Under the pieces are notes generated by a model that was not told the DNA's origin, did not search any database, and saw nothing but the letters and a program-made list of their open reading frames with translations. Below are positions 2,439 to 34,408 of a stretch of 57,840 nt of DNA, piece by piece. Each line of letters starts with the position of its first letter. Positions within the stretch are counted from its first letter, which is position 1. Both the position numbers and the translations under genes were made by a program. This DNA is from Thermoflexus hugenholtzii JAD2 (GTDB lineage: Bacteria; Chloroflexota; Limnocylindria; Limnocylindrales; Limnocylindraceae), in assembly GCA_945862225.1 (NCBI GenBank), contig CAMAXG010000001.1, forward strand, positions 1-57,840, read 5' to 3'.

Positions 2439-3401
2439 ATGGCGCGGCGACGGCCGAGCACGCCAGGCATCGACGGGGTCCTTCTCGTCGATAAGCCGAA
2501 TGGCCCGACCAGCCACGACATCGTGGCCAAAATCCGCCGGATGGCGGGCCAGCCACGCATCGGCCACGGCGGTACCCTCGACCCATTTGCCACAGGCCTC
2601 TTAGTGCTTGTCCTGGGCCGCGCGACGCGCCTAGCGAGCATGCATCTCGGCGGCGAGAAGCGCTACGAGGCGACCTTCTCGTTTGGTGGCGCAACCACAA
2701 CAGATGATCTCGATGGCGAGCGCATCGGGGCCCCTGGAGCACCGCCCTCGCAGGCGGCAATCGATGCGCTGCTGCCGCGCTATCGGGGCGCCTTAGAGCA
2801 GGTACCACCGTCACACTCCGCAAAGCGCACAGACGGCGTACGCGCCTACGAACGTGCGCGTGCAGGGGAGGTAGTTGAGCTGGCACCGCGTCCGATTGAG
2901 ATCAAGCGGTTCGACCTGCTCAGCTGGGACGGCTCTCATGCCGAGGAGCCGCTCATGCATGCACGGCTTGACGTGAGTTCCGGCACCTACATTCGCGCGA
3001 TCGCACGAGACCTTGGCCGCGATGCAGGGAGTGGGGCACACCTCGTTGCGCTTCGTCGCGTTGGCTCTGGTGTCTTTGCAGTGGGGGAGGCGCACACCAT
3101 GGAGCAGATCGCCGCCGCTGCACTAGCGGGTGAGCTGCGCAACCTGCTGCTGCCGCTCGACGCTGGGCTCGACCACATCGCCGCAACGGAGGTTGGCGAG
3201 AAGGGTGCAGCACTGCTACGCGACGGCATCGCACTCCCCGTCGGCATGCTGGACAGCGCCGGTCAGGAGACGGCAGAGGGGAGCCCTCTACGGCTGCATG
3301 TGCATGGCGCGATCGCTGCGTTCGGTCGTCGCACGGCATTTGGCGCGCAACCTGAGCGCGTCTTCATCGAATCAAACGCGCTGGTAGGGCAACGCCTGTG
3401 A
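2439..3401 (+). CDS. truB: tRNA pseudouridine(55) synthase
   Basis: GVLLVDKPNGPTSHDIV and GHGGTLDPFATGLL (catalytic Asp motif). Confidence 0.9.
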   Translation: MARRRPSTPGIDGVLLVDKPNGPTSHDIVAKIRRMAGQPRIGHGGTLDPFATGLLVLVLGRATRLASMHLGGEKRYEATFSFGGATTTDDLDGERIGAPGAPPSQAAIDALLPRYRGALEQVPPSHSAKRTDGVRAYERARAGEVVELAPRPIEIKRFDLLSWDGSHAEEPLMHARLDVSSGTYIRAIARDLGRDAGSGAHLVALRRVGSGVFAVGEAHTMEQIAAAALAGELRNLLLPLDAGLDHIAATEVGEKGAALLRDGIALPVGMLDSAGQETAEGSPLRLHVHGAIAAFGRRTAFGAQPERVFIESNALVGQRL

Positions 3402-4234
3402 AGCGGGTGGTCGGTTGGGATGAGTTGGCGTTGGAGATTTCGTCAGTAGAAGGCGCTCCTGGATCAGTCCTAACCCTTGGGGTCTTTGATGGACTGCATC
3501 GAGGGCATATGCGCCTGCTCGCCGCGGCTGAGCGGCTTGCTCGGTCGGCAGGGCTCCGCCGCGTGCATATTGGCTTCACACCACACCCCGACCTGCTGAT
3601 GCGAGGCGCAACGCCTCTCCAGCTCCTTGACGCCGGTGAACTCGAGCTCCGCATGGCTGCGGCGGGCGTTGACCTTTGGTGCGACCTCCCCTTTACGGCA
3701 GAGACGCGTGACACGCCGTGGGAGCGCTTCATCGAGCGGCTGGTTGGGGTGACGGCGGCGAAGAGCATCGTCCTCTCCCCAGAATCCGCATTCGGCAAGG
3801 GTCGGCAGGGGACGCTGCCCACCATCCGGGCCTGGGGGGCTGCGCACGGACTGCAGGTGCATCCGGTGGCCGAGGCGATCGCTGGTGGCATGCCCATTCG
3901 GAGCACCCGTATCCGGGAGGCCATTGTGGGCGGGGACCTCACAGGGGCGGCGCGCCTCCTCGCTCGACCCTACGCCCTCGTAGGCACGCTCCAGGGTGAC
4001 CAGATCCGCCTCCAGCCCAGCGAGGCTGCCGTACCACCCCCAGGGGTGTATCGGGCTCGCGTTGGGGTTGCGGGGCGCCCAGAGGGACGACTTCCCCTCG
4101 TGGGTCGGCTCACCACCGTACGTGTCGATGCGGATGGGCTGACTATCACGCTCGTGCGACCAGATGCCGCAGATCGACGCTTTGAGGGGGGCCCGATACG
4201 GGTCGCCCTGCTTGGGGGGAGCCTCCAGGCGTAG
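3398..4234 (+). CDS. ribF: FAD synthetase (FMN adenylyltransferase) RibF-like; the C-terminal riboflavin-kinase part is short and degenerate
   Basis: N-terminal LTLGVFDGLHRGHMRLL nucleotidyltransferase motif. GTGA overlap with truB. The C-terminal ~88 aa lack the GRxLGFPTAN kinase motif. Confidence 0.7.
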   Translation: MKRVVGWDELALEISSVEGAPGSVLTLGVFDGLHRGHMRLLAAAERLARSAGLRRVHIGFTPHPDLLMRGATPLQLLDAGELELRMAAAGVDLWCDLPFTAETRDTPWERFIERLVGVTAAKSIVLSPESAFGKGRQGTLPTIRAWGAAHGLQVHPVAEAIAGGMPIRSTRIREAIVGGDLTGAARLLARPYALVGTLQGDQIRLQPSEAAVPPPGVYRARVGVAGRPEGRLPLVGRLTTVRVDADGLTITLVRPDAADRRFEGGPIRVALLGGSLQA

Positions 4235-4276: not shown

Positions 4277-4297
4277 GGGGTGCCCTTGGAGCACCTC
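4277..4297 (+). promoter_or_regulatory. Stem-loop in the rpsO leader just upstream of the SD (possible S15 autoregulatory element)
   Basis: GGGGTGC (4277-4283) pairs with GCACCTC (4291-4297), with one G-U pair and a 7-nt loop. AAGGAG SD at 4304-4309. Confidence 0.3.
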
Positions 4298-4318
4298 CGA
4301 TGTAAGGAGAACCACCAC

Positions 4319-4588
4319 TTGCCACTAGACCAAGCAACAACCGCACGCATCGTTGCAGACAACGGGCGTCACGGTACTGACACTGGGTCCGCAGATGTCC
4401 AGATCGCACTCCTCACGGAGCGCATTCAGGGCCTTACGGCGCACCTACAAACCTTTAAGCAGGACAACCACTCGCGCCGCGGGCTCTTGAAGCTCGTCGG
4501 TCAGCGACGTCGACTGCTTACTTTCCTTAAGCGTGAAGATGCAGCGCGCTACGCCGCGCTCTCCGAGAAGCTCGGACTTCGTCGCTAA
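4319..4588 (+). CDS. rpsO: 30S ribosomal protein S15
   Basis: [23 protein letters not shown]...[20 protein letters not shown] at 4319 lies 9 nt after AAGGAG and gives the canonical 89 aa. The track start (GTG 4280) adds a non-homologous extension. Confidence 0.9.
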
Positions 4589-4664: not shown

Positions 4665-7262
4665 ATGAGCAACATCACCAGCGTATCCGCCGAGTTCGGC
4701 GGTCAGACCCTCACGATTGAAACAGGCCGAATGGCCCGCCTTGCCGGTGGCGCAGTCACCGTTCGCTACGGCGACACCGTGGTCCTTGGTACTGCAAACC
4801 GCAGCGAGCCACGACCAGGCCTCGACTTCTTCCCACTCACGATTGAATTCGAAGAGCGCATGTACGCCGCGGGGAAGATTCCAGGCGGATACATCAAGCG
4901 CGAAGGGCGAGCTTCTGAGAATGCAACGCTCTCCGCTCGTTTGACCGACCGACCGATTCGACCACTCTTCCCAGAGGGGTACAAGGACGACGTGCAGGTT
5001 GTGATCACCGTGCTGAGCGCGGACCAGGAGAACGACCCAGACATTCTCGGAACGCTTGCCGCCTCTGCCGCACTGACGATCTCCGAGATCCCATTCCTTG
5101 GGCCAATCGGCGCAGTGCGCGTCGGCATCGTGAACGGTGCCTTTGTCATCAACCCAACCTTTGATCAGCTCAAGGAGAGCGATCTCGACTTGGTGGTCTC
5201 AGGCACAGTCAGCGCGATCATGATGGTCGAGGCTGGCGCAAACCTGATCACCGAAGACAAGATGGCCGAGGCCATTGAATTCGGACACAACGCCATCAAG
5301 GCGCTCGTTGCCCTGCAGGAGGAGCTCCGCGCCAAGGTTGGCAAGGAGAAGCGCGTTCCCTACATCGAGCCAAGCACCGACAGCGTGCTGGCGTTTGCTG
5401 AGGCAGCCGCGAACGGCGGCACCTTTGTAATCGTTGACACTGAGACGACCGGCCTTGATTCGAAGATTTCGGATCTTGTCGAAGTCGCTGCAGTGAAGAT
5501 CAAGGGTGGCAAGATCACCGACCGCTGGAGCAGCTTTGTTGACGCCGGCAACGGTATCGTCGGCGCCCAGATGCACGGCATCACCAACAAAGACATAAAG
5601 GGCGGCCTGACGCCAAAGGCGGCAGCCGAGAAGATTGCTGAATTCGCCAAGGGTGCAATCCTTGTCGGACACAACCTTGGCTTTGATGTTGCCTTCCTCG
5701 ACGAGGCACTCGGCAAGGGTCGCACCTTCGCGACCGAGCAGGGGAGCTACCTCGACACCTACGTCCTCTTCAAGGAGGCGTACCCAGAGAGCGAGTCGTT
5801 TAAGCTCGGAGATCTCGCACGCGTCTATGGCGCAGCGACAACCCCGAACCATCGAGCCGCTGCTGACGCTGAAGCGACGGCAGAGCTCTTGCTGATTCTC
5901 GCCAACGAACTCCCAGGTCGCCTCGCGGCGCTCAAGGAGGGGATTGCTGATTCGATCCGCGCCGCACGCAGCGGTAAGGGCGAGCCAAAGGCGATCTTCG
6001 AGGCGGCACGTCGCAAGGCGCGCGTCGGCAAGAACCTCTTCGGCTGGATGCATAAGAAGACGGCGCGCAGCCTCACGATGAAGGAGGGAATCCGCCTCGA
6101 CGGCCGTAAGGCTGATGAGATCCGCAAGATCTCGGTAGAGGTTGGCCTTCTCCCGCGCGCACACGGCTCAGGCCTCTTCACCCGCGGTGAGACCCAGGCG
6201 TTGAGCGTGGCAACCCTTGGCCCAGTGGCACAGGGGCAGCGTCTCGACACGATCTCGCCGATCACCGAGAAGCGCTACATCCACCACTACAACATGCCGC
6301 CATACAGCACCGGCGAGAACAAGCCGATGCGTGGTCCAGGGCGACGCGAGATTGGGCACGGAGCCCTTGCCGAGCGCGCACTGATCCCAGTGCTCCCATC
6401 GATCGAGGAGTTCCCGTACGCCATCCGAGTCGTCTCGGAGTGCGTGACCTCCAACGGATCGACCTCAATGGCCTCAACCTGTGGCTCGAGCCTCTCACTC
6501 CTTGATGCCGGCGTGCCGCTCAAGGCGTCGGTCGCTGGTGCTGCAATGGGCCTGATGTCGGAGCCAGATGGCGAGTTCATCGTCCTCACGGACATCCTCG
6601 GCAAAGAGGATGCCTTCGGCGACATGGACTTCAAGGTGACGGGAACCCGCACAGGGATCACCGCCTTGCAGATGGACATCAAGGTGCAGGGGATTAACGG
6701 GGCGATCATTCGCACCGGCCTCAAGGACGCGCTCGCTGCGCGCCTCGAGATCCTCGACAAGATGGACGCGATCATCAGCACCGCTCGACCAGAGCTCTCT
6801 GATTTCGCTCCACGCATCACCACGATCAAGATCAATCCGGAGAAGATCCGCGACATCATTGGTAAGGGTGGCGCGGTCATCCGCAAGTTGCAGGATGACT
6901 TCCAGGTCAACATCAATGTGCAGGACGACGGCACCGTGCAGATCGCTTCGGCTGACCCAGAGCGCACCAAGGGCGTCCTTGATGCGATCAACGGGATCAC
7001 CAAAGAGGTTGAGCTCGGCGCGCTCTACATGGGCAAGGTCACCCGCATCATGGGCTTCGGCTGCTTCGTTGAGATCCTTCCAGGCAAGGAAGGCCTCGTA
7101 CGCATCGGCGAGCTTGCCGACTATCGTGTGAACACGGTCGAGGATGAGGTCGCCGTTGGCGACGAGATCATGGTTGTGGTCACCGAAGTTGACCGCCAGG
7201 GTCGTGTAAACCTGTCGCGCCGCGCCGCCATGCAGCGTCACAAGGCCACGCCTCAGGAGTAA
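4665..7262 (+). CDS. pnp: Polyribonucleotide nucleotidyltransferase (PNPase) with an inserted DEDDh exonuclease domain
   Basis: RNase PH core 1 (FPLTIEFEERMYAAGKIPGG). Core 2 (IRLDGRKADEIR...LPRAHGSGLFTRGETQAL, ECVTSNGSTSMASTCG). KH (GKGGAVIRKL). S1 (GKVTRIMGFGCFVEI). 865 aa because of an extra block of about 165 aa. Confidence 0.95.
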   Translation: MSNITSVSAEFGGQTLTIETGRMARLAGGAVTVRYGDTVVLGTANRSEPRPGLDFFPLTIEFEERMYAAGKIPGGYIKREGRASENATLSARLTDRPIRPLFPEGYKDDVQVVITVLSADQENDPDILGTLAASAALTISEIPFLGPIGAVRVGIVNGAFVINPTFDQLKESDLDLVVSGTVSAIMMVEAGANLITEDKMAEAIEFGHNAIKALVALQEELRAKVGKEKRVPYIEPSTDSVLAFAEAAANGGTFVIVDTETTGLDSKISDLVEVAAVKIKGGKITDRWSSFVDAGNGIVGAQMHGITNKDIKGGLTPKAAAEKIAEFAKGAILVGHNLGFDVAFLDEALGKGRTFATEQGSYLDTYVLFKEAYPESESFKLGDLARVYGAATTPNHRAAADAEATAELLLILANELPGRLAALKEGIADSIRAARSGKGEPKAIFEAARRKARVGKNLFGWMHKKTARSLTMKEGIRLDGRKADEIRKISVEVGLLPRAHGSGLFTRGETQALSVATLGPVAQGQRLDTISPITEKRYIHHYNMPPYSTGENKPMRGPGRREIGHGALAERALIPVLPSIEEFPYAIRVVSECVTSNGSTSMASTCGSSLSLLDAGVPLKASVAGAAMGLMSEPDGEFIVLTDILGKEDAFGDMDFKVTGTRTGITALQMDIKVQGINGAIIRTGLKDALAARLEILDKMDAIISTARPELSDFAPRITTIKINPEKIRDIIGKGGAVIRKLQDDFQVNINVQDDGTVQIASADPERTKGVLDAINGITKEVELGALYMGKVTRIMGFGCFVEILPGKEGLVRIGELADYRVNTVEDEVAVGDEIMVVVTEVDRQGRVNLSRRAAMQRHKATPQE
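5418..5915 (+). other. DnaQ/epsilon-like DEDDh 3'-5' exonuclease domain nested in the PNPase all-alpha linker (aa ~252-417)
   Basis: ExoI FVIVDTETTG (D258, E260). ExoII LVGHNLGFDVAFL (D341). ExoIII HRAAADAEATAELLL (H396, D401). In frame and flanked by PNPase helical-linker sequence on both sides. Confidence 0.8.
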
Positions 7263-7338: not shown

Positions 7339-8388
7339 ATGAGCAACTCAGCAAACCCAGAGGGCTACGTTGTCGCCGTCCTCGGCGCAACCGGACTCGT
7401 TGGGCAAACCATGATCTCGGTACTTGAGGAGCGCAACTTCCCCGTGCGCCAACTTGTTCCACTTGCTTCGAGCAGTGGTGGCCGCACTGTACGTTTCCGT
7501 GGTGCAGATATCCCCGTGCAACAGGTTCAACCTGAATCATTCTCTGGCGTCGACATCGCCATCTTTAGTGCCGGGGGGGCCGCAAGCTTGACGTATGCGC
7601 CGGAGGCTGCTGCTCGAGGATGCGTCGTTGTCGATAACTCCAGCGCCTGGCGCATGGATGCAAAAGTTCCGCTCGTTGTCTCCCAGGTAAATCCGGACGC
7701 ACTGAAGGCCCACAACGGAATCATTGCGAACCCGAACTGCTCAACGATGCAACTTGCGCCACTCCTCAAAGCACTCTCTGATGCAGCCGGACTGGAGCGC
7801 GTCGTCGTAGCAACCTACCAGGCGGTTTCTGGTGCGGGCGGGAAATCCGTAGACGATCTCATTCAGCAGCGCGCTGCGGTCGTGAGCGGCGGCACACCCG
7901 CTTCGACTATCTACCCACACGCCGTCGTATCGAGCCCAATCCCTGCCATCGACGTATTCCTCCCTGATGGTTCCACCAAAGAAGAGACGAAGGTCGTGAA
8001 CGAGAGTCGAAAGATTCTCGACCTTCCAAATCTCCGCATCTCGGCAACGGCAGTACGTGTTCCGGTGGAGCGCAGTCACTCTGAGGCTGTGCATGTGGAG
8101 CTCTCCCGTGCACTCAGCCCCGACCAGGCCCGTGCCGCTTTTGCTTCGATGCAGGGGGTAACCGTTGTTGATGACCCCGCGAACCATTCGTACCCACTGG
8201 CGGCCGCCGCAGCGGGTAGTGACGAGATCTACGTGGGACGTGTCCGCACTGATGCCAGCGTTGAGCATGGGCTGGCCTTTTGGGTGGTGAGCGATAACGT
8301 CCGTAAGGGCGCAGCAACGAACGCCGTGGAAATTGCCGAACTCCTAGTCAGCATGGACCTGGTCCATGGAGCGAACCACGACGCCTAG
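7339..8388 (+). CDS. asd: Aspartate-semialdehyde dehydrogenase
   Basis: [15 protein letters not shown](P)-binding motif and active-site NPNCSTMQL. Confidence 0.9.
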
Positions 8389-9049
8389 CCGGGTCGCTCT
8401 CGAGCTCGCCTCGGTAGCCCGCGACGCCTCCACCTGTACGGCGTGCGGCCTCTCGGAGACGCGAACGCAGGCGGTCCCCGGAGAGGGGAGCCCGACCGCA
8501 GCGCTGGTCTTTGTCGGGGAGGCTCCTGGGGCACGAGAGGACCTGGCTGGCCGACCATTTGTTGGGGCCTCTGGTCGCCTCCTGGATGACCTCCTGGCTT
8601 CGATCGGCCTTCGGCGCGAGGAGGTCTTCATCTTGAACACCGTGAAGTGTCGGCCCCCAGAGAACCGCAACCCTCAACGCTCTGAGACCGCTGCATGCGC
8701 TCCGTTCCTTACGCGACAGCTGCAAGCGCTCCAGCCACGGGTGATCGCCACCCTCGGCAAGCATGCGCTTGCTGTCTTTGCGCCGACCGCAAAGATTGCC
8801 GAGGTACACGGGCGTCCGTACGCACAGACAGAGGTCGACCAGCACGGAAGCGCCGTGCTCTTCCCGCTCTACCACCCTGCAGCGGCACTGCACAACGGGA
8901 GCCTGCGGCCCACTTTGGAGCGCGACATGGCGGCCTTGCGGGAGTATCTCAACGCGAATGCTCGCGAAGGGGCGGGGGAGGCTACCCTACGCGAGGTGGA
9001 TTCGGTGCCGACTCGGCCCCGTTCCAGGACGCAAGGGGAGGCTGAATGA
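8366..9049 (+). CDS. Uracil-DNA glycosylase, family 4 (Fe-S type)
   Basis: [32 protein letters not shown] and YHPAAAL motifs. The start is uncertain because it overlaps the asd end by 23 nt. Confidence 0.8.
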
Positions 9050-10785
9050 CCCAACGCCCGCAACCGGCACGCCGACCCGCTGAGGCAAGGCGTCCCCAGG
9101 AGACCCGTCGCCCTCATAAGGCGGCCGCGGGTGGGCCAGCACTTCGCCTGATCCCGCTCGGCGGCATGGGGGAGATCGGGAAGAACCTCTACCTCTACGA
9201 GTACCAGGACACGATCATCCTCGTCGACTGCGGTCTCGCCTTCCCCGACGAGACCACCCTTGGCGTCGACATCATCATTCCTGACATCAGCTACCTCCGC
9301 GCACGACGCAGTGCCGTGAAGGCGGTCCTCATCACCCACGGGCACGAGGACCACGTCGGCGCGCTTCCGCACATCCTCCCTGAGCTCCCGGGGGTGCCCG
9401 TCTACGCCAGCACCCTCGCACGCGGGCTCCTTGCGAACAAGCTGAAAGAGTTCAAGGTCACCGCCAATCCGCTGCGCCCACTCGATCCAGGCGGCCGACT
9501 CGAGGTTGGTCCCTTCACGATCGAACCCTTCCGTGTCGGTCACTCCATCCCGGATGCGATGGGCTACGCAATCCATTCACCTGTTGGAACGGTGATCCAC
9601 ACCGGCGACTTCAAGTTTGACCAGACCCCAGCTGACGGAAAGACGGCAGACTTCGCCATGCTTGCAAAGTTCGGCGCACAGGGCGTGCTTGCGCTTGTGT
9701 CAGACAGCACGCGCGCTGAAGCTCCCGGATACACGCCGAGCGAGCAGGTTGTTGGTCAGGCGTTCAAGGGGATCATTAGCACCGCACCTGGTCGCGTCAT
9801 CATCGCGACCTTCGCTTCAAACATTGCTCGCATTCAGCAGGTGCTTGACGCGGCAGGGGAGTTCCACCGCAAGGTCGCCGTCGTTGGTCGCTCAATGGAG
9901 CAGAACGTCAAGATCGCACGCGACCTTGGCTATCTGAAGTTCCCAACCCCACTCCTTGCTAAAGAGGAGATCGCGCGCCGCACAAAGGAGCCGCTCGTGA
10001 TCGCCACCACTGGCGCACAGGGCGAGCCGATGGCCGGACTAGCGAAGATGGCGAATGGCGAACATCGCAACGTGGAGATTCAGAACGGCGATACCGTGAT
10101 CGTCTCTGCGTCACCGATTCCAGGCAACGAAGAGGCGGTTGGCCGAACGATCGATAATCTCTTCAAGTCTGGTGCGAACGTGATCTATCACTCCATTGCA
10201 CAGGTGCACGTCTCGGGTCACGCCTCGCAAGAGGAGCTGAAGATGATGCTGGCGCTCACCAAGCCGAAGTACTTCGTACCGATGCACGGTGAGATGCGCA
10301 TGCAGGTGGCCCATGGGCGACTTGCGACGCAAATGGGGGTGTCGCCATCTGCAGTGTTCATCATTGATAACGGCACGCCGGTTGAGTTCGCCGCTGACGG
10401 CAGCGCACGACGTGGCAAGCCGGTCGAGCATGGATCTGTCTTTGTTGATGGATCCTCGGTTGGCGAGATCAGTGAGATCGTTCTTCGCGATCGACGCACG
10501 CTTGCCGACGACGGCATCGTTGTGGTGATCGCCACCGTTGATGCGCGTACTGGCAAGCCTGTCGGTCGCCCAGCACTGGTTACTCGTGGATTCCTTAACG
10601 GCGACGAAGACAACAAGCTCGTTGAAGAGGCGATCACCATCGCTCTCAAGGCAATCCAGCACAAGGGTGAGCGCGGCGCAGAGGTGGGCCTAATCAAGGC
10701 GCAGCTCAGTGAATCAGTATCGAGATTCCTTGGCAAAGAGACGCGACGTCGCCCACTCGTGGTCCCTGTGGTGGTGGAGGTTTAA
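9046..10785 (+). CDS. rnj: Ribonuclease J
   Basis: MBL/beta-CASP protein of 579 aa. LRLIPLGGMGEIGKN and HGHEDHVGALP. ATGA overlap with the udg stop. Confidence 0.9.
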   Translation: MTQRPQPARRPAEARRPQETRRPHKAAAGGPALRLIPLGGMGEIGKNLYLYEYQDTIILVDCGLAFPDETTLGVDIIIPDISYLRARRSAVKAVLITHGHEDHVGALPHILPELPGVPVYASTLARGLLANKLKEFKVTANPLRPLDPGGRLEVGPFTIEPFRVGHSIPDAMGYAIHSPVGTVIHTGDFKFDQTPADGKTADFAMLAKFGAQGVLALVSDSTRAEAPGYTPSEQVVGQAFKGIISTAPGRVIIATFASNIARIQQVLDAAGEFHRKVAVVGRSMEQNVKIARDLGYLKFPTPLLAKEEIARRTKEPLVIATTGAQGEPMAGLAKMANGEHRNVEIQNGDTVIVSASPIPGNEEAVGRTIDNLFKSGANVIYHSIAQVHVSGHASQEELKMMLALTKPKYFVPMHGEMRMQVAHGRLATQMGVSPSAVFIIDNGTPVEFAADGSARRGKPVEHGSVFVDGSSVGEISEIVLRDRRTLADDGIVVVIATVDARTGKPVGRPALVTRGFLNGDEDNKLVEEAITIALKAIQHKGERGAEVGLIKAQLSESVSRFLGKETRRRPLVVPVVVEV

Positions 10786-14427: not shown

Positions 14428-14919
14428 ATGGCAGCCGATAACTCATTTGACGTCGTATCCGAATACGACGAGCAAGAGCTCAAGAATGCCCTCGACCAGA
14501 CCCGGCGAGAGATTGCAACGCGATACGACTTTCGCGATGCCACCGCCGAAATCAAAGAGGAGAAGGGTGAACTGATCATTCGCGTCGACGGTGACCTACG
14601 GCTGAAAGCCCTCCGTGACATCCTCGAATCGAAGTCGGTGAAGCGTGGCATTGACCTGCGAACCTACGACTGGGGGAAGGCTGAGGCCGCCGGTGGGGAT
14701 ACCCTTCGCGTGCACGTCAAGCTGCGCAAGGGCCTTGACGATGTTGCTGCGAAGAAGATTGCCAAGTTCATTCGCGACACCTTCCCAAAGGTGAAGACCC
14801 AAATCCAAGGTGAGGCGGTGCGTGTGACCGGCAAGTCGCGCGACGAGCTGCAAGAGGTGATGACGAGCCTCAAGGATCTCGATGTTGAGCGACCGTTGCA
14901 GTTTGAGAACTATCGGTAG
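14428..14919 (+). CDS. yajQ: YajQ family nucleotide-binding protein (UPF0234)
   Basis: 163 aa. N-terminal SFDVVSEYDEQELKNALDQ is characteristic of YajQ. Confidence 0.85.
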   Translation: MAADNSFDVVSEYDEQELKNALDQTRREIATRYDFRDATAEIKEEKGELIIRVDGDLRLKALRDILESKSVKRGIDLRTYDWGKAEAAGGDTLRVHVKLRKGLDDVAAKKIAKFIRDTFPKVKTQIQGEAVRVTGKSRDELQEVMTSLKDLDVERPLQFENYR

Positions 14920-16497: not shown

Positions 16498-18108
16498 CTA
16501 GGCGCCTTCCGGTGAGCCAGCGGCTGCATCAGGGCCTGGCGGCGGCTGCGTTGCAGCTGTAGCGGCGAGCGCTTTCGCCTCATCGCTCTCGGGACGCGCA
16601 AAGAGGGGATGACCATCGGAGGTTAAGCAGCGTCCCGTTGCCAGATCCCACTGCCACCCATGGATGCTGCAGGTCAACGTCTCGCCGTCGGTGGTTCCGA
16701 AGCGGGTGAGGTCGGCCTTCATATGCGGGCAGCGGCGCTGGATCTGCCAGCCGGTCAGGTCGAACGTCCCCTCCGTTGGGCCGTTCTCGGCATAGAAGCC
16801 TTCGGCGTACTGGATCCGTGCCGTGGAGAGGCACTTAAACCAGGTGTAGACGTAGTCGTTATAGGCACCTTTGCGCCACGCTGAGAAGCGCAGCGAGAGG
16901 AAGAGGCTGTTGACCCAGTCATCGGTGCGCGTGCGTACCAGGTGGTCCAAGAGGTAGCGGGGGATCGTGAACCGGAAGTCCACCTCTCGGCCATCATCGG
17001 CAACGACGGAACGCTCCGGGAAGTCGAGGATGATTGCCTCGTCATCGGTCTGAATCTTGATCGCGGTGCCGATTCCGTCACAGACACGTGGGCCGAGTGC
17101 CATGAGTGGCTCGAGCCAGGCCTTCAGCTCTGGTACGAGGTTGCTCCGAGCTCCAGCCCACGACGCTTTCTCCGCTGCAATGACAGGAGCCATGTCGGCT
17201 GCGTATCTGCGCAAATACACCTCTTTGTTCGCAAAGACATCCTGCACAGACAGATCACCCTGTAAATGCTGCACGTTGAAGATTCCGTCAGCATTGAACT
17301 CTCCAACGCTCCCCGGGAGCATCAGAACGGCCGCCTGACCCTCAGCCTGCAGGCGCTCAACCATGAAGCGCTGGTCGGGGAAGATCGAATCATCGGCGTC
17401 GTTGACGTCATTCCAGCGGAAGAGCTCGTCATCGAGGAAGCAGGGGGGTCCCGCAGAGGGGATTACCACGCGAGGTGAAATGATCTCGACGTAGCGGGCT
17501 GCACGCGTGAACTGTGCGGCGCGTTTCTTCTTGGCAAGCGCTTCAGCGGCCTTCGCCGGCATCTCATAGACCATCGGGTACCAGATCGCACCGCTGAACT
17601 GCAGGAGGCAGATATCGATTGCGCCCTGCACCAGAAGCCGATCGGGGTCTGTGGGGCGGCTGTCATTGAGGTTCAGGAGGCGCTCTACGCCGTCGTCGAT
17701 GAGCAGCGCGGAATCACCAATGGGGCCGTCTGTGGGGGCTGTGAGGGCCTCCACGACGATGCTGAGGCCACCGTGGCGCACAGGAACGCCCGCTTGCGTC
17801 TCGATGAACGTATGGAATCCGAGCCCCTGGAGGGCCTCTTTGAGCTCCGGAAGCGGGTAGGCGGGGAGGATAACCACCGCATCCTTGTTGCAGTAGGCCT
17901 TGAGCCACTCAGGGTCGAAGTGGTCTCGATGCAGATGGCTGATGTACAGGTAATCAGTGGCTCCAAGGGCGGCATGGTCGAGCTTGTCGTTTCGTGGGTA
18001 TGGGAACCAGCCCGCGTAATACGCAGGGTTGAACCAGGGGTCGCACAAGATTGAGCCGTGCGCGGTGTGGATCTTGACTCCGGCCTGGGCGATGAACTCA
18101 ATCCGCAT
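16498..18108 (-). CDS. Fusion protein: N-terminal metallo-beta-lactamase fold, middle region of unknown function, C-terminal Rieske [2Fe-2S] domain
   Basis: HLHRDH (HxHxDH) near the N-terminus. C-terminal CPH-x17-CSIH Rieske motif (RRCPHMKADLTRFGTTDGETLTCSIHGWQWDL). Confidence 0.75.
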   Translation of the reverse strand: MRIEFIAQAGVKIHTAHGSILCDPWFNPAYYAGWFPYPRNDKLDHAALGATDYLYISHLHRDHFDPEWLKAYCNKDAVVILPAYPLPELKEALQGLGFHTFIETQAGVPVRHGGLSIVVEALTAPTDGPIGDSALLIDDGVERLLNLNDSRPTDPDRLLVQGAIDICLLQFSGAIWYPMVYEMPAKAAEALAKKKRAAQFTRAARYVEIISPRVVIPSAGPPCFLDDELFRWNDVNDADDSIFPDQRFMVERLQAEGQAAVLMLPGSVGEFNADGIFNVQHLQGDLSVQDVFANKEVYLRRYAADMAPVIAAEKASWAGARSNLVPELKAWLEPLMALGPRVCDGIGTAIKIQTDDEAIILDFPERSVVADDGREVDFRFTIPRYLLDHLVRTRTDDWVNSLFLSLRFSAWRKGAYNDYVYTWFKCLSTARIQYAEGFYAENGPTEGTFDLTGWQIQRRCPHMKADLTRFGTTDGETLTCSIHGWQWDLATGRCLTSDGHPLFARPESDEAKALAATAATQPPPGPDAAAGSPEGA

Positions 18109-20506: not shown

Positions 20507-22033
20507 CTATCGGGCGTAATCAACCGCCCGTGTCTCTCGGATCACCGTCACGCGAATCTGGCCCGGATAGGCAAGCTGCTCTTCGATGCGCTTGACGACC
20601 TCGTGGGCAATCGTGCGCGCCTGTTCGTCAGTGACCTGATCAGGTCGAACGAGGATGCGTACCTCGCGGCCGGCCTGCACGGCGTAGACCTTCTCGACAC
20701 CTTCAAATCCGAGTGCGATCTGCTGTAGGTCTTCAAGCCGACGGAGGTGTGCCTCACCCTGGTCGCCACGTGCGCCAGGTCGTGCGGCGCTGATCGCGTC
20801 TGCGACCTGCACGATTGGTGCCTCGCGAGCAGTGCACTCCACCTCCTGATGGTGTGCAGCGATCGCGTTGACGATCCCCTCTGGCATGCCATGACGACGT
20901 GCCAGATCGGCGCCGATCGCCGCGTGGGTGCCTTCAATCTCATGGTCAAGCGCCTTACCAATGTCATGGAGCAGCCCGCCAACCTTTGCGGCGCGAATGT
21001 CCATGCCAAGCTCGCCGGCGACAGCGCCTGCGACCTGTGCGGTTTCAATTGAGTGCAGCAAGACGTTCTGACCGAACGAGGTGCGCCACTGCAGACGGCC
21101 GAGGATGCGCAACAGTTCCGTTGGAATACCAGTCACGCCTACCTTGAGTGCGGCAGCCTCACCATTCTTCAGTGAGTCGGCATCAACCTCACCCTGGGCC
21201 TTCGCCACGATCTCTTCGATGCGAATCGGGTGGATGCGACCGTCCTGCATGAGACGCTCAAGAGCAACACGCGCCACCTGGCGACGCACTGGGTCGAACG
21301 ATGAGAGCGTCACCTGGAGTGGGGTTTCATCGATGAGCAGCTCGACGCCAGTGGCGGCCTCAAGAGCGCGAATGTTGCGCCCCTCGCGACCAATGAGGCG
21401 ACCCTTCATCTCGTCGCTAGCGAGCTTCACGTGCGTCACGGAGTGCTCGGCGCTATGGTCCGCCGCGACGCGCTGCATCGCCGTGAGGATCATGTCGCGT
21501 GCTCGGTCGGCCGCATCCTCTTGCGCACGTCGCTCCAGGGTTGCCTGGAGACGCTTCGTCTCACGCTCAGCCTCTTCGGTGAATCGCGAGAGCACCTCGG
21601 TTCGAGCAGCTTCGGGATCGAGTCCGGCAACCTCTGCAAGGCGCGTGTTGACGTTGGCACGCGCCACATCGAGCGCAACGGACTCATCAACGAGGGTGCG
21701 CTCGCGCTCTGCGATGGCGACCTCTCGACCGGCAAAGAAGCTCTCTCGCTCACCAAGGGTGACTTCACGAAGGCGAAGGCGTTCAGCCTCGGCTGCCGCC
21801 GCCTCGCGGTCGGCCTGCTGGGCGAGTTCGGCCTCGGCACGAAGGCGTGAGATCTCGCCCTTTGCGCCGATGACCAGGGTGCTCTGCTGCTGGCGCGCCT
21901 CCTCGAGAATGGTGGCGGCCCTACGGTTCGCGGCTCGAATAGAGGCGGCGGCGATCACGCTTCGTAGCGCGAGTCCAGCTCCTACGCCGAATAGAGCAAA
22001 CAACACGGGGGCGATCCCGTTCAAATCAGGCAT
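20507..22033 (-). CDS. rny: Ribonuclease Y
   Basis: N-terminal TM helix, coiled-coil, KH (GREGRNIRALE), HD (LLHDIGKALDHE). ATG at 22033 is preceded by GGAGAG. The track start at 22141 adds a non-homologous leader. Confidence 0.9.
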   Translation of the reverse strand: MPDLNGIAPVLFALFGVGAGLALRSVIAAASIRAANRRAATILEEARQQQSTLVIGAKGEISRLRAEAELAQQADREAAAAEAERLRLREVTLGERESFFAGREVAIAERERTLVDESVALDVARANVNTRLAEVAGLDPEAARTEVLSRFTEEAERETKRLQATLERRAQEDAADRARDMILTAMQRVAADHSAEHSVTHVKLASDEMKGRLIGREGRNIRALEAATGVELLIDETPLQVTLSSFDPVRRQVARVALERLMQDGRIHPIRIEEIVAKAQGEVDADSLKNGEAAALKVGVTGIPTELLRILGRLQWRTSFGQNVLLHSIETAQVAGAVAGELGMDIRAAKVGGLLHDIGKALDHEIEGTHAAIGADLARRHGMPEGIVNAIAAHHQEVECTAREAPIVQVADAISAARPGARGDQGEAHLRRLEDLQQIALGFEGVEKVYAVQAGREVRILVRPDQVTDEQARTIAHEVVKRIEEQLAYPGQIRVTVIRETRAVDYAR

Positions 22034-22168
22034 GACGCTCTCCTGCCAGGCTGGCCCCGCGGCCTGGCTCGCGGTAAATAGGTCAAATGCCCAGCCAAAG
22101 GCTGGAGAACAGAGGCTACGCCTACCCGCCAGATCGGTCAAACGCCCATGGCGTTGAGCGTGGCGGGG

Positions 22169-32068: not shown

Positions 32069-34408
32069 CTACAAGAGCGCGAGAGTTACCCCTTCGCGGC
32101 CAGGCTCATCAGCCGTACGCACCTCGCGTACCTCAGGTAGTTCTCGCAGCTTGCGACGGACCGCGTCGCGTAACGCGCCAGTCCCAACGCCATGGATGAT
32201 TTCCAGCTGATCCCCGCCTGCCAGCAGCACGGCGCTGATTCGCGCCTCAAGCGCTACCAGCGCATCCTCAACGCGAGCGCCGCGGAGATCGAGCTTTGCC
32301 GCAGCCAAGGATCCAGTCGAGCGGACTGCAGAGTGCGGGGCCGACTTGGCTGGCGCAAGGATCTTGCTGATCTCTGCGACCGGCATTGAGCTGCGCATAC
32401 GGCCGAGCGCAACTGTTGCACTGGCTCCATCGACGGCAAGCAGCGTGCCGCGCGCACCCGAGCGAAGCACCACATCACTCCCGATGGACGCTAGCAACGC
32501 CGAGGAGGATGGTCCTCCGCTCGCGTCTTGCTCATCGGTCAGTGACGCGGCTGCGCCAGCGGCTACTGCCTGCTGTAGATCCGTTGCGACAGCGAGGGCC
32601 TCTGGTGTGAGGCTGCCCGACTCAAGTGCCGCTCGCAGCTGCTCAACGCGCAGCAGAATTGATGCTGCGGCCTCCCGTGCCTCTGCTGTTGCGGTTTGTC
32701 GTGCTTCAAGCGCCCCTCGCTCCGTCGCCCGGCGAAGTTCAACGGCTTGTGCAAGTGAGTCCGCTGCACGCTCCTGCAGCCCCTCTGCCACCTGGCGTGC
32801 GTCGCGCGCCGCTCGCTCGGCCTCCGCCGCGGCAGCGAGCGCGGCATCGAGTGTGGCCCCTTGGTCGCTCCGACGCGCCTGCGCGGCATCTAGGAGCGCC
32901 TGTGGCAAACCGAGACGTGCTGCGATCGCGAATGCCTGGGACCCCCCTGGCGCACCAACTTCGAGGCGATAGGTTGGCGCAAGGGTTGCGAGATCGAATG
33001 CCACAGAGCCATTGACCACACCTGGTGTGACATGCGCGTACTGCTTGAGTTCCGCGTAGTGGCTCGTGGCCAACACGCGACAACCTCGGAGTCGAAGCTC
33101 GTCAATGATGGCGGCCGCGAGCGCAGCCCCCTCCGCTGGATCGGTCCCCGCCCCAGCCTCGTCGAGAAGCACGACGTCGCCGGAGACCGCGCCAAGCAGG
33201 ATGCGCTGAATCGAGGTGAGGTGACCAGAGAAGGTGCTGAGACTCTGTGCAATGGATTGATCATCACCAATGTCAGCCCAGACGTTCCCCGTTGGGGGCA
33301 CCGCTGATCCGAACCCGCTCGGAATCGGTAGACCGGCGTGGTGCATCGCCGTAAGCAGACCCACCGCCTTCAGTGCCACCGTTTTGCCACCCGTGTTGGG
33401 CCCGGTGATCACAAGCACGCGACGCTCAACGTCAAGGTGCAAGCTCATCGGCACTACTGGGGGTGTGAGGAGTGGGTGGCTCGCCTCCGTTAGTCGTAGA
33501 TCCCCATCTGGAGCATCGTCGGCATAGAGCCAGTTCCGATCACGAGCTACATCGGCAACTGCGCGTGCGAGATCGAAGAGTGCGAGGAGTTCACCATTGG
33601 ATCGGAGAGCTACCGCGTCGGCGCCAACGAGCGCTGAGAGCGCTCCAAGAATTCGAGCCTCTTCCGTCGCAACAGCCGCCTCAGACTCTCGCACGGCATT
33701 CCCGAGATCAACCACCTCGAGGGGCTCGATCCAGACTGTTTGCCCGGTCGCACTGGCGTCGTGCACGATCCCTGGAACACGTGACTTCCACTCTGAGCGC
33801 ACTGGCAGCACATAGCGACCGTTGCGCACCGTGACGATCGGCTCTTGGAGGTAGGGGCTGTAGTTCTTCGCATGGGCCAGCGTCTCGAGCCGGGTTCGGA
33901 GTCGCTCGAGGCTGGTTCGGTGGAGTGCGCGCAGCCCACCAAGAAGCGGTGATGCGGCATCAAGAATCGAGCCGTCGGGAGCGATGGCACGTTCGATCGA
34001 ACTGCGCAGCGGTCGGAGCGGGGTTAGTGCAGCACCGAGGGCGCTGAGCGTTGGGCCTGACCCAGCCACATCGCTGGAGATGCGCTCAACGACGCGAAGT
34101 GTCTCGCTGATCGCAAAGAGCGCAGGGCCATCCAGAGTGCCCCCTTTCGCACCGCGCTCTGCGGCTGGCTCCAAGTCGCTCGCTCCGCCGATGTGCGGAT
34201 CCCCCCCATCTCGCCGTAGCTCCGCAATCTCACGACCAAGGGCTCGCAGGGTTGGAAGGCTCCCGCCGCGGTCTGTAGGACGGAGCTCCGTAGCGAGCGT
34301 GCGAGACGGGGCAAAGGCACATGCTTCGGAGAGGATCTCAAGGAGTGCAGCCCACTCGAGGCGCACCAGGGAGCGCTCGTCGTACGGCCGTCCTCCTGCC
34401 CGATTCAC
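32069..34408 (-). CDS. mutS2: Endonuclease MutS2 (with C-terminal Smr domain)
   Basis: ITGPNTGGKT Walker A, LLDEAGAGTDP, C-terminal Smr (LDLRGARVEDAL...IIHGVGTGALR). Confidence 0.9.
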   Translation of the reverse strand: MNRAGGRPYDERSLVRLEWAALLEILSEACAFAPSRTLATELRPTDRGGSLPTLRALGREIAELRRDGGDPHIGGASDLEPAAERGAKGGTLDGPALFAISETLRVVERISSDVAGSGPTLSALGAALTPLRPLRSSIERAIAPDGSILDAASPLLGGLRALHRTSLERLRTRLETLAHAKNYSPYLQEPIVTVRNGRYVLPVRSEWKSRVPGIVHDASATGQTVWIEPLEVVDLGNAVRESEAAVATEEARILGALSALVGADAVALRSNGELLALFDLARAVADVARDRNWLYADDAPDGDLRLTEASHPLLTPPVVPMSLHLDVERRVLVITGPNTGGKTVALKAVGLLTAMHHAGLPIPSGFGSAVPPTGNVWADIGDDQSIAQSLSTFSGHLTSIQRILLGAVSGDVVLLDEAGAGTDPAEGAALAAAIIDELRLRGCRVLATSHYAELKQYAHVTPGVVNGSVAFDLATLAPTYRLEVGAPGGSQAFAIAARLGLPQALLDAAQARRSDQGATLDAALAAAAEAERAARDARQVAEGLQERAADSLAQAVELRRATERGALEARQTATAEAREAAASILLRVEQLRAALESGSLTPEALAVATDLQQAVAAGAAASLTDEQDASGGPSSSALLASIGSDVVLRSGARGTLLAVDGASATVALGRMRSSMPVAEISKILAPAKSAPHSAVRSTGSLAAAKLDLRGARVEDALVALEARISAVLLAGGDQLEIIHGVGTGALRDAVRRKLRELPEVREVRTADEPGREGVTLALL

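Follow-up and report, generated by a model that had tools for sequence, protein, structure and literature searches.

Background

Polynucleotide phosphorylase (PNPase) is among the best-studied enzymes of RNA decay, and all the PNPase structures in the copy of the Protein Data Bank (PDB) searched here hold one catalytic chemistry per protomer. In the eukaryotic RNA exosome, Rrp44 occupies the side of the ring that faces away from the S1/KH cap, and Rrp6 belongs to the DEDD superfamily as a DEDDy, RNase D-like enzyme. PNPase and the exosome are kin (PMC3376730); the degradosome of Caulobacter crescentus contains PNPase and RNase D (PMC4245959), and in human mitochondria PNPase-SUV3 cooperates in trans with REXO2, a DEDDh enzyme (PMC7261184). 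Here, I describe a pnp gene in which a DEDDh exonuclease domain is nested within the PNPase itself. It lies in a stretch of 57,840 nucleotides (nt) from Thermoflexus hugenholtzii JAD2 (GTDB lineage Chloroflexota; Limnocylindria; Limnocylindrales; Limnocylindraceae), namely positions 1 to 57,840 of contig CAMAXG010000001.1 in assembly GCA_945862225.1. This whole stretch is called the window below, and all coordinates refer to it.

A DEDDh domain inside PNPase

The gene is made up of the following parts (aa, amino acids of the product):

4665..7262, + strand: pnp open reading frame (ORF), 865 aa, ATG start; PNPase with a nested DEDDh exonuclease domain
4665..5384, + strand, aa 1-240: N-terminal RNase PH-like core and first linker helix
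aa 146-209, + strand: RNase_PH_C (Pfam)
5385..5909, + strand, aa 241-415: inserted DEDDh (DnaQ/PolC-type) 3'-5' exonuclease domain
5427-5891, + strand, aa 255-409: RNase_T (PF00929) match (Pfam)
5424..5453, + strand, aa 254-263: ExoI motif FVIVDTETTG (D258, E260)
5661..5699, + strand, aa 333-345: ExoII motif LVGHNLGFDVAFL (D341)
5850..5894, + strand, aa 396-410: ExoIII motif HRAAADAEATAELLL (H396, D401)
5910..6074, + strand, aa 416-470: remaining helices of the PNPase all-alpha linker
6075..6764, + strand, aa 471-700: second, catalytic RNase PH core (Pfam RNase_PH at 485-618)
aa 560-566, 597-604 and 649-658: RREIGHG, NGSTSMAS and DAFGDMDFKV of the second RNase PH core
6819..6989, + strand, aa 719-775: KH domain (Pfam KH_1, E = 2.7e-9)
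7008..7223, + strand, aa 782-853: S1 domain (Pfam S1, E = 6e-16)

On the 865-aa product Pfam finds the full set of PNPase domains, with RNase_PH split in two stretches. The PNPase equivalog model TIGR03591 (Enzyme Commission number 2.7.7.8) scores 917.7 bits against a cut-off of 525.05, and its match likewise falls in two stretches, a split caused by the insert. Pfam and the alignment to solved PNPases give the domain order of a PNPase, that is RNase PH, helical linker, RNase PH, KH and S1. In the alignment to 8zaw, residues 8-240 of the query correspond to 20-251 of the chain and residues 416-854 to 276-714; the bounds of the insert (aa 241-415) are set by this alignment, and about 175 residues there stand in for about 24 residues of the all-helical linker that joins one RNase PH core to the other. 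The assignment of aa 1-240 is based on the match to residues 20-251 of 8zaw and 22-239 of 5yjj, together with a model helix at 197-225.

A preliminary description, made from the letters of the window, had already singled out this ORF for an extra block, and the ORF listing bears it out when set beside the solved full-length PNPases, which measure 705-784 aa. The block had been given as 5418-5915 (aa 252-417); its presence stands, while its extent is slightly wider in the alignment to 8zaw. Its placement in the all-alpha linker between the RNase PH cores agrees with the alignment to solved PNPases and with the model, and the residue numbers D258, E260, D341, H396 and D401 were exact, the motifs lying where they had been reported. 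When the full-length model was searched with Foldseek, the top 50 matches were all PNPases, with template modelling (TM) scores of 0.64-0.78 normalised to the target, and the extra domain is present in none of the solved PNPase chains so matched. The GC content across the insert is 0.57-0.63, the same as in its flanks, with no compositional break.

Canonical PNPase resumes after the insert, as had been proposed. Residues R560, R561, S599, T600, S601, D649, D655 and K657 of the phosphorolytic site are all present, and D649, D655 and K657 show the D-x5-D-x-K spacing of the Mn-binding residues D486, D492 and K494 of Escherichia coli PNPase (PMC2723993), at a constant offset of 163 residues. Judged by these residues, the phosphorolytic site downstream of the insert is intact. 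The fused gene is the housekeeping, single-copy-type pnp of a Candidatus Limnocylindrus, a freshwater member of the Chloroflexota, and not a paralogue at an odd locus.

Identity of the insert

The RNase_T match covers the whole PF00929 profile (1-164 of 164) with 89 bits against a gathering score of 24 (E = 6.4e-25). It cannot be due to chance, and the early assignment of the block to the DEDD exonucleases holds. The insert was also searched alone against NCBIfam and the PDB sequences. Its best NCBIfam match is the PolC proofreading model NF001688 (1.7e-35), and the PRK07883 'DEDD exonuclease domain-containing' proteins and the DinG exonuclease are found as well. Among PDB sequences the PolC exonucleases 9qpc (E = 3.8e-21) and 2p1j (E = 5.7e-19) and the DinG exonuclease 8zef (3.3e-14) are followed by more distant relatives, namely Cas2-DEDDh, S. 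thermophilus DnaQ, E. coli epsilon and RNase T. HMMER alignments to 9qpc and 2p1j put D258/E260, D341 and H396/D401 on the catalytic positions of ExoI, ExoII and ExoIII, which confirms that the three motifs are positionally equivalent to those of known enzymes: the ExoI of the insert is aligned with FVVLDFETTG of the T. maritima PolC exonuclease, its ExoII LVGHNLGFDVAFL with IIVAHNANFDYRFL of 2p1j, and its ExoIII HRAAADAEATAELLL with HHRALDDARVTAQV of the same chain.

An AlphaFold2 model of aa 236-440, with a predicted local distance difference test score (pLDDT) of 87, agrees with the order of strands and helices of DnaQ-type domains, and the model and Foldseek together give an RNase H-like alpha/beta fold. 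The best structural match is the Staphylococcus aureus DinG exonuclease, at a root-mean-square deviation (rmsd) of 2.0 Å over 169 columns, and the PolC exonuclease follows at 2.8 Å. PolC, DinG, DnaQ and epsilon domains are all matched at a Foldseek probability of 1.00 and an rmsd of 2.0-3.2 Å; RNase T, ExoI, Orn and ExoX rank lower.

Narrower identities were tried and rejected. For the epsilon subunit of DNA polymerase III (dnaQ) the scores are too low (TIGR01406, 60 against 222.7; TIGR00573 with the insert alone, 59.2 against 71.5), as is that for a PolC subunit (NF001688, 119 bits against an equivalog cut-off of 873), and a polymerase-linked proofreader does not suit a domain embedded in PNPase, in an ORF that has no polymerase domains. 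Orn/REXO2 was set aside too: the PDB sequence search gave no Orn chain at E <= 0.01, and Blastococcus Orn comes at Foldseek rank 38 against the insert model (TM 0.53, 19% identity). RNase T is matched by the whole sequence only (Pseudomonas aeruginosa RNase T, E = 5e-5; the best stretch, query 86-173, failed alone), its TM of about 0.62 to the insert model leaves it behind PolC, DinG and epsilon, and the 25 best NCBIfam matches listed for either query include no model of RNase T. The insert is a DEDDh domain of the DnaQ/PolC type and not a polymerase subunit; very probably, it is an active 3'-5' exonuclease.

Conservation, distribution and selection

A protein identical over its 865 aa is on record as MCX5972353.1, 'polyribonucleotide nucleotidyltransferase [Chloroflexota bacterium]', and occurs on 147 contigs from NCBI, JGI, ENA and Logan. 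Homologues were taken as the best 120 clusters at 90% identity for the window protein and the best 120 for a 68%-identical relative (from locus L017). PF00929 is present in every one of the former (120/120, at 70-98% identity) and every one of the latter (120/120), hence in 240/240 over both sets, which span 68-100% identity. Related sequences are 858-876 aa long, bar one of 729 aa. Where the clusters name a source, it is Candidatus Limnocylindrus, Candidatus Limnocylindrales or Chloroflexota, apart from a few odd bin labels. Among the GTDB species representatives, 19 loci carry a junction-spanning segment in one frame, including those of Ca. Limnocylindrus and Ca. Aquidulcis frankliniae. In its proteins, the window shares 99.4-99.7% identity with metagenome-assembled genomes of Limnocylindrus, a genus that the NCBI taxonomy places in the class Candidatus Limnocylindria of the phylum Chloroflexota. 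A chimeric assembly, for which read mapping had been proposed as a check, is excluded without it by the 147 contigs and by PF00929 in all 240 clusters.

The catalytic residues D258, E260, D341, H396 and D401 are invariant in 241/241 sequences, across inserts that diverge down to 42% identity as a whole, and the residues of the phosphorolytic site named above are invariant in the same 241. Estimated after Nei and Gojobori, the ratio of nonsynonymous to synonymous divergence (dN/dS) of the insert is 0.035-0.045 at unsaturated dS of 0.3-0.9 and 0.08-0.14 in deeper comparisons; the cores have 0.02-0.08 in the same unsaturated comparisons, so that the insert stands only slightly above them, and its dS is similar to that of the flanks. 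The insert is under strong purifying selection. Genomes of Limnocylindraceae are reported to be reduced to about 1.3 Mbp (PMC13212565), and the retention of 175 extra codons in genomes of that size is a further sign of function.

A separate observation concerns the 'HN' pair of ExoII. H336 is found in 239 of the 241 sequences, with Gln in the other 2, and position 337 (nt 5673-5675) is Asn in 205 and Ser in 36, a change that may mark subclades with altered substrate contacts.

Beyond the close homologues, a library of representatives at 50% identity, 1.84 billion proteins in all, yielded one full-length representative with a closely related insert (P0015), the other strong matches with PNPase segments being fragments from that family. 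Outside PNPase, the nearest proteins in it, with identities of 29-45%, are PolC, DEDD-GIY-YIG fusions and free-standing DEDDh proteins. Two fused matches that seemed divergent (P0207 and P0165) proved to belong to this family as well, as ORF calls riddled with frameshifts. At three loci (L019, L041 and L047) the match extends upstream; at L019 the extension, considered as PNPase-like context, belongs to a PolC of 1435 aa. DEDDh domains are also seen multiplied in DNA enzymes: a PolC-like protein of 1631 aa (P0139) has two RNase_T stretches, and a protein of 1045 aa (P0140) has three, along with GIY-YIG and UVR.

As far as can be seen among the best 120 clusters of each set, the fusion appears old, at the level of the class, and monophyletic; independent fusions with unrelated DEDDh inserts may exist in other PNPases. 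A recent horizontal acquisition, or a mobile element, is at odds with the even composition, with a dS like that of the flanks and with the class-wide distribution, and was rejected.

Novelty and public names

The full-text literature searched, on PNPase with DnaQ-type exonucleases, on fusions and insertions and on Chloroflexi, contains no description of a PNPase-DEDDh fusion, in line with the preliminary description, which knew of no characterised PNPase of such architecture; nor does the comparative-genomics paper on Limnocylindria (PMC13212565) mention PNPase or exonucleases. The fused PNPase is undescribed rather than unseen: a known enzyme and a known domain in a nested architecture that is lineage-wide. 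Though undescribed in that literature, it is common within the class Limnocylindria, and public under automatic names. These are 'polyribonucleotide nucleotidyltransferase', in many JGI/IMG records 'DNA polymerase III epsilon subunit family exonuclease' (P0021, P0026, P0030 and others), and, for partial NCBI records, 'exonuclease domain-containing protein'. The epsilon-subunit name is wrong, since the fused PNPase fails the dnaQ and PolC cut-offs, and the misnaming is systematic; it could distort inventories of replication and repair in Limnocylindria.

Genomic setting

The neighbours of pnp, and the other genes of the window that were looked at, are the following:

34-945: infB
855-1370: rbfA
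1367-2434, + strand: DHH/DHHA1 protein, weakly NrnA-like (95 bits against a cut-off of 350; Pfam DHH and DHHA1)
2439-3401: truB
3398-4234, + strand: ribF
4280-4588, + strand: rpsO (ribosomal protein S15), directly upstream of pnp (TIGR00952, 112 bits against a cut-off of 64, aa 18-102)
from 7339, + strand: asd (aspartate-semialdehyde dehydrogenase), directly downstream of pnp
8366-9049, + strand: family-4 uracil-DNA glycosylase, its start overlapped by 23 nt by asd
9046-10785, + strand: RNase J, 1.8 kb downstream of pnp (640 bits to the RNase J1 model, above the RNase J family cut-off)
after RNase J: ftsK
14428-14919, + strand: DUF520/YajQ-family protein
16498-18108, - strand: Rv3818-like SCP2 and Rieske protein
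20507-22141, - strand: RNase Y (RNase_Y_N and HD), 13 kb from pnp
32069-34408, - strand: MutS2-type protein (MutS_V and Smr)

The arrangement of rpsO and pnp is the canonical one, and the cluster infB-rbfA-DHH/DHHA1-truB-ribF-rpsO-pnp is one of translation and RNA. With RNase J and RNase Y, the RNA-decay set of the organism is of Gram-positive type. By its domains, the DHH/DHHA1 gene between rbfA and truB is a candidate nanoRNase or 3'-phosphoadenosine 5'-phosphate (pAp) phosphatase; an NrnA-like gene in the pnp cluster bears on whether a DEDDh insert is needed to clean up oligonucleotides. Rfam gave three tRNAs in the window and no regulatory RNA, and a scan for promoters and terminators around pnp found nothing above shuffled expectation. 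The lists of KEGG Orthology (KO) numbers in the supplement of PMC13212565, which are incomplete and sorted by habitat, have K13288 (orn) once, under 'Freshwater', and K00962, K02342 and K12573 nowhere; they are unusable as an inventory of RNases or DnaQ proteins.

Two smaller points touch the neighbours. The ribF ORF, of 278 aa, matches the kinase/FAD synthetase models only at the N-terminal adenylyltransferase part (about 15-203 of 325 profile positions) and scores below their cut-offs; its riboflavin kinase half may be absent or have diverged strongly. The rpsO ORF as listed begins at GTG, and the S15 model covers only its aa 18-102; translation probably begins about 17 codons after that GTG.

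Discussion

A single helix runs unbroken from ExoIII into the PNPase linker, at 398-436 in the full-length model and about 398-435 in the model of the insert alone, with pLDDT about 90, and for this reason the DEDDh module seems, in these models, to be rigidly mounted on the helical domain. The linker is modelled as helices 398-436, 441-452 and 456-474, with block means of pLDDT about 88-94 over aa 401-470. At the N-terminal junction a less conserved coil (226-238) leads to a short conserved helix with S240 and F244. The full-length monomer model has a mean pLDDT of 64.8 and only moderate confidence outside the insert and the linker. The helical domain of E. coli PNPase is found on the side of the torus that faces away from S1/KH, where it makes up part of a pore; this pore offers another way into the active site and is thought to serve the traffic of phosphate and nucleoside diphosphates (NDP) (PMC2723993). 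By analogy, three DEDDh sites per trimer would be expected on the ring face opposite KH/S1, beside the side pores. Insertion into the linker would be tolerated because the termini of a DEDDh domain are close together, as the title of PDB entry 2gui, a cyclised epsilon, implies, and because there is a precedent in PolC (L019), which carries its DEDDh domain as a nested insert too.

The following scheme is proposed. An ancestor of the class Limnocylindria would have gained a DnaQ/PolC-type DEDDh domain inside the linker, of which all sampled descendants keep the catalytic residues. One polypeptide would then hold two exonuclease centres, with phosphorolysis assigned to the second RNase PH core and metal-dependent hydrolysis to the DEDDh domain. 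RNA would enter via KH/S1 and be phosphorolysed in the ring, and the DEDDh domains would hydrolyse those single-stranded 3' ends that leave the ring or that it cannot process well, such as limit oligonucleotides and short 3' tails; decay would be more complete and less dependent on phosphate. Such hydrolysis of leftovers fits with the 'limit digest product' that PNPase keeps (PMC3376730) and with the need of cells for nanoRNases that finish fragments of 2-5 nt (PMC10570053). I regard it as evenly balanced whether the DEDDh domain acts on RNA in concert with phosphorolysis. Several observations weigh against it: in sequence as in fold, the insert is nearest to enzymes whose main substrate is DNA (PolC, DinG, DEDD-GIY-YIG, epsilon); oligoribonuclease is distant from it in both respects, as given above; with the DHH/DHHA1 gene 2.2 kb upstream, a dedicated nanoRNase may already exist; and the placement in the trimer rests on the monomer model just described and on the published E. 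coli structures. The finishing of short oligonucleotides, among the roles offered in the preliminary description, is plausible, but it is not favoured by ancestry, the closest relatives being of DNA type and an NrnA-like gene being present in the cluster.

A bolder form of this proposal is distinctly unlikely. It would make the enzyme a self-contained, exosome-like machine, in which RNA, caught by KH/S1 and fed into the RNase PH ring, is shared between the phosphorolytic sites and three rigid DEDDh sites on the far face, for full, phosphate-independent decay to nucleoside monophosphates; these sites would be the analogue of Rrp44 beneath the ring of the eukaryotic exosome. If true, this could be of importance where phosphorus is scarce, in freshwater and soil, and bacteria would have arrived independently at the principle of a ring with hydrolases.

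The ancestry of the insert gives rise to another explanation, in which the DEDDh domain is a 3'-5' exonuclease of DNA or of RNA:DNA hybrids and the fused PNPase serves DNA-end processing, repair or R-loop removal and not bulk RNA decay. The best NCBIfam matches (PolC proofreading, PRK07883, DinG), the same relative order against solved structures by sequence and by fold, and the nature of the closest non-PNPase proteins in the library all point this way, although several DEDDh enzymes are not strict on DNA versus RNA, which makes ancestry weak evidence for the substrate. PNPase has established roles in DNA repair in Bacillus subtilis, and the NrnA-like gene in the pnp cluster may already handle the turnover of nanoRNA; still, the fused protein has no DNA-repair domain, and its host is a canonical RNA-decay PNPase, with KH/S1 and a seemingly intact phosphorolytic site, in a cluster of translation and RNA processing. 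The preference of B. subtilis DinG for single-stranded DNA and its degradation of the RNA strand of hybrids (PMC12525004) are counted in favour, and a loss of DNA-repair functions, reported for the Limnocylindraceae (PMC13212565), could make multifunctional proteins advantageous. Taken together, a role on DNA is on the unlikely side, though it is the most serious of the alternatives.

Pseudo-enzymes normally lose their catalytic residues. The DEDDh domain might nonetheless be a non-catalytic module that binds (oligo)nucleotides, gates phosphate and NDP at the side pore or offers a docking surface to partners, and a rigid helical connection would suit a gate; in E. coli PNPase the helical domain contributes to activity and is believed to regulate entry to the active site (PMC2723993). 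This is very unlikely when the five catalytic residues stand in 241/241 sequences of a domain whose identity otherwise falls as low as 42%, and when the metal-binding and general-base motifs align exactly with active PolC domains. It can also be asked whether the architecture is an artefact of assembly or gene calling, through a chimeric contig or a misjoined dnaQ-like gene, since most records are metagenome-assembled and some entries are fragments or frameshifted calls (P0207, P0165). The identical protein on contigs of four separate origins (NCBI, JGI, ENA and Logan), the domain in every cluster, the in-frame junction in 19 GTDB species representatives, the lack of a compositional break and a selection on the insert about as strong as on the cores reduce this to a negligible chance.

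What stands out is a second, hydrolytic exonuclease centre, as predicted here, in the PNPase of an abundant, uncultivated class of soil and lake bacteria, a finding that should surprise specialists of RNA decay. If the two centres cooperate, the enzyme would offer a simple system for the coupling of phosphorolysis and hydrolysis; if instead the domain acts on DNA, PNPase would be physically tied to DNA-end processing, a link that is debated in other bacteria.

Comparison with known systems

The fused PNPase shares its domain order with the canonical bacterial enzymes (E. coli 3CDI/7OGK, S. aureus 5YJJ, 8ZAW, C. crescentus 4AM3, Mycobacterium tuberculosis 8WX0), and has in common with them the motifs RREIGHG, NGS(S/T)SMA and DxxGDMDFKV as well as the rpsO-pnp synteny. 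It departs from them in the linker, where they have about 24 residues and no second, hydrolytic domain, and it has about 175.

The closest relative of the insert, in sequence and fold, is the proofreading domain of PolC (E = 4e-21; rmsd 2.8 Å), and there is a likeness of design as well, as in PolC, including that of L019, the DEDDh domain is nested in the PHP domain of a larger enzyme. The PolC host, however, is a DNA polymerase that proofreads DNA 3' ends, whereas the insert falls far below the PolC cut-off and is accompanied by no polymerase domains. PolC-like DEDDh domains serve as accessory nucleases also in the DinG of Firmicutes, joined to an XPD-like helicase, and in Cas2-DEDDh; those fusions are terminal and their partners DNA-directed (helicase, integrase), whereas the insert in PNPase is nested.

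The pairs known from C. crescentus and from mitochondria likewise bring together a phosphorolytic PNPase and a hydrolytic DEDD exoribonuclease, but as separate polypeptides, and their hydrolases are of other kinds: RNase D is DEDDy, REXO2/Orn is a dimeric dinucleotidase, and the insert is close to neither. With the eukaryotic exosome, the fused PNPase shares the RNase PH-type ring, the S1/KH entry face and the association with hydrolytic 3'-5' exonuclease activity from the DEDD superfamily; a hydrolytic site on the far side from the cap, as Rrp44 provides it, is predicted for the fused PNPase too. In the exosome, however, the hydrolases are separate subunits, Rrp6 is DEDDy and the eukaryotic ring is inert, whereas the ring of the fused PNPase is, by its conserved residues, phosphorolytic and its exonuclease is a covalently nested DEDDh domain. 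If its two centres cooperate, this PNPase would be a covalent bacterial counterpart of partnerships that have otherwise been known only in trans, those of the exosome with Rrp6 and Rrp44, of the Caulobacter degradosome with RNase D and of mitochondrial PNPase with REXO2.

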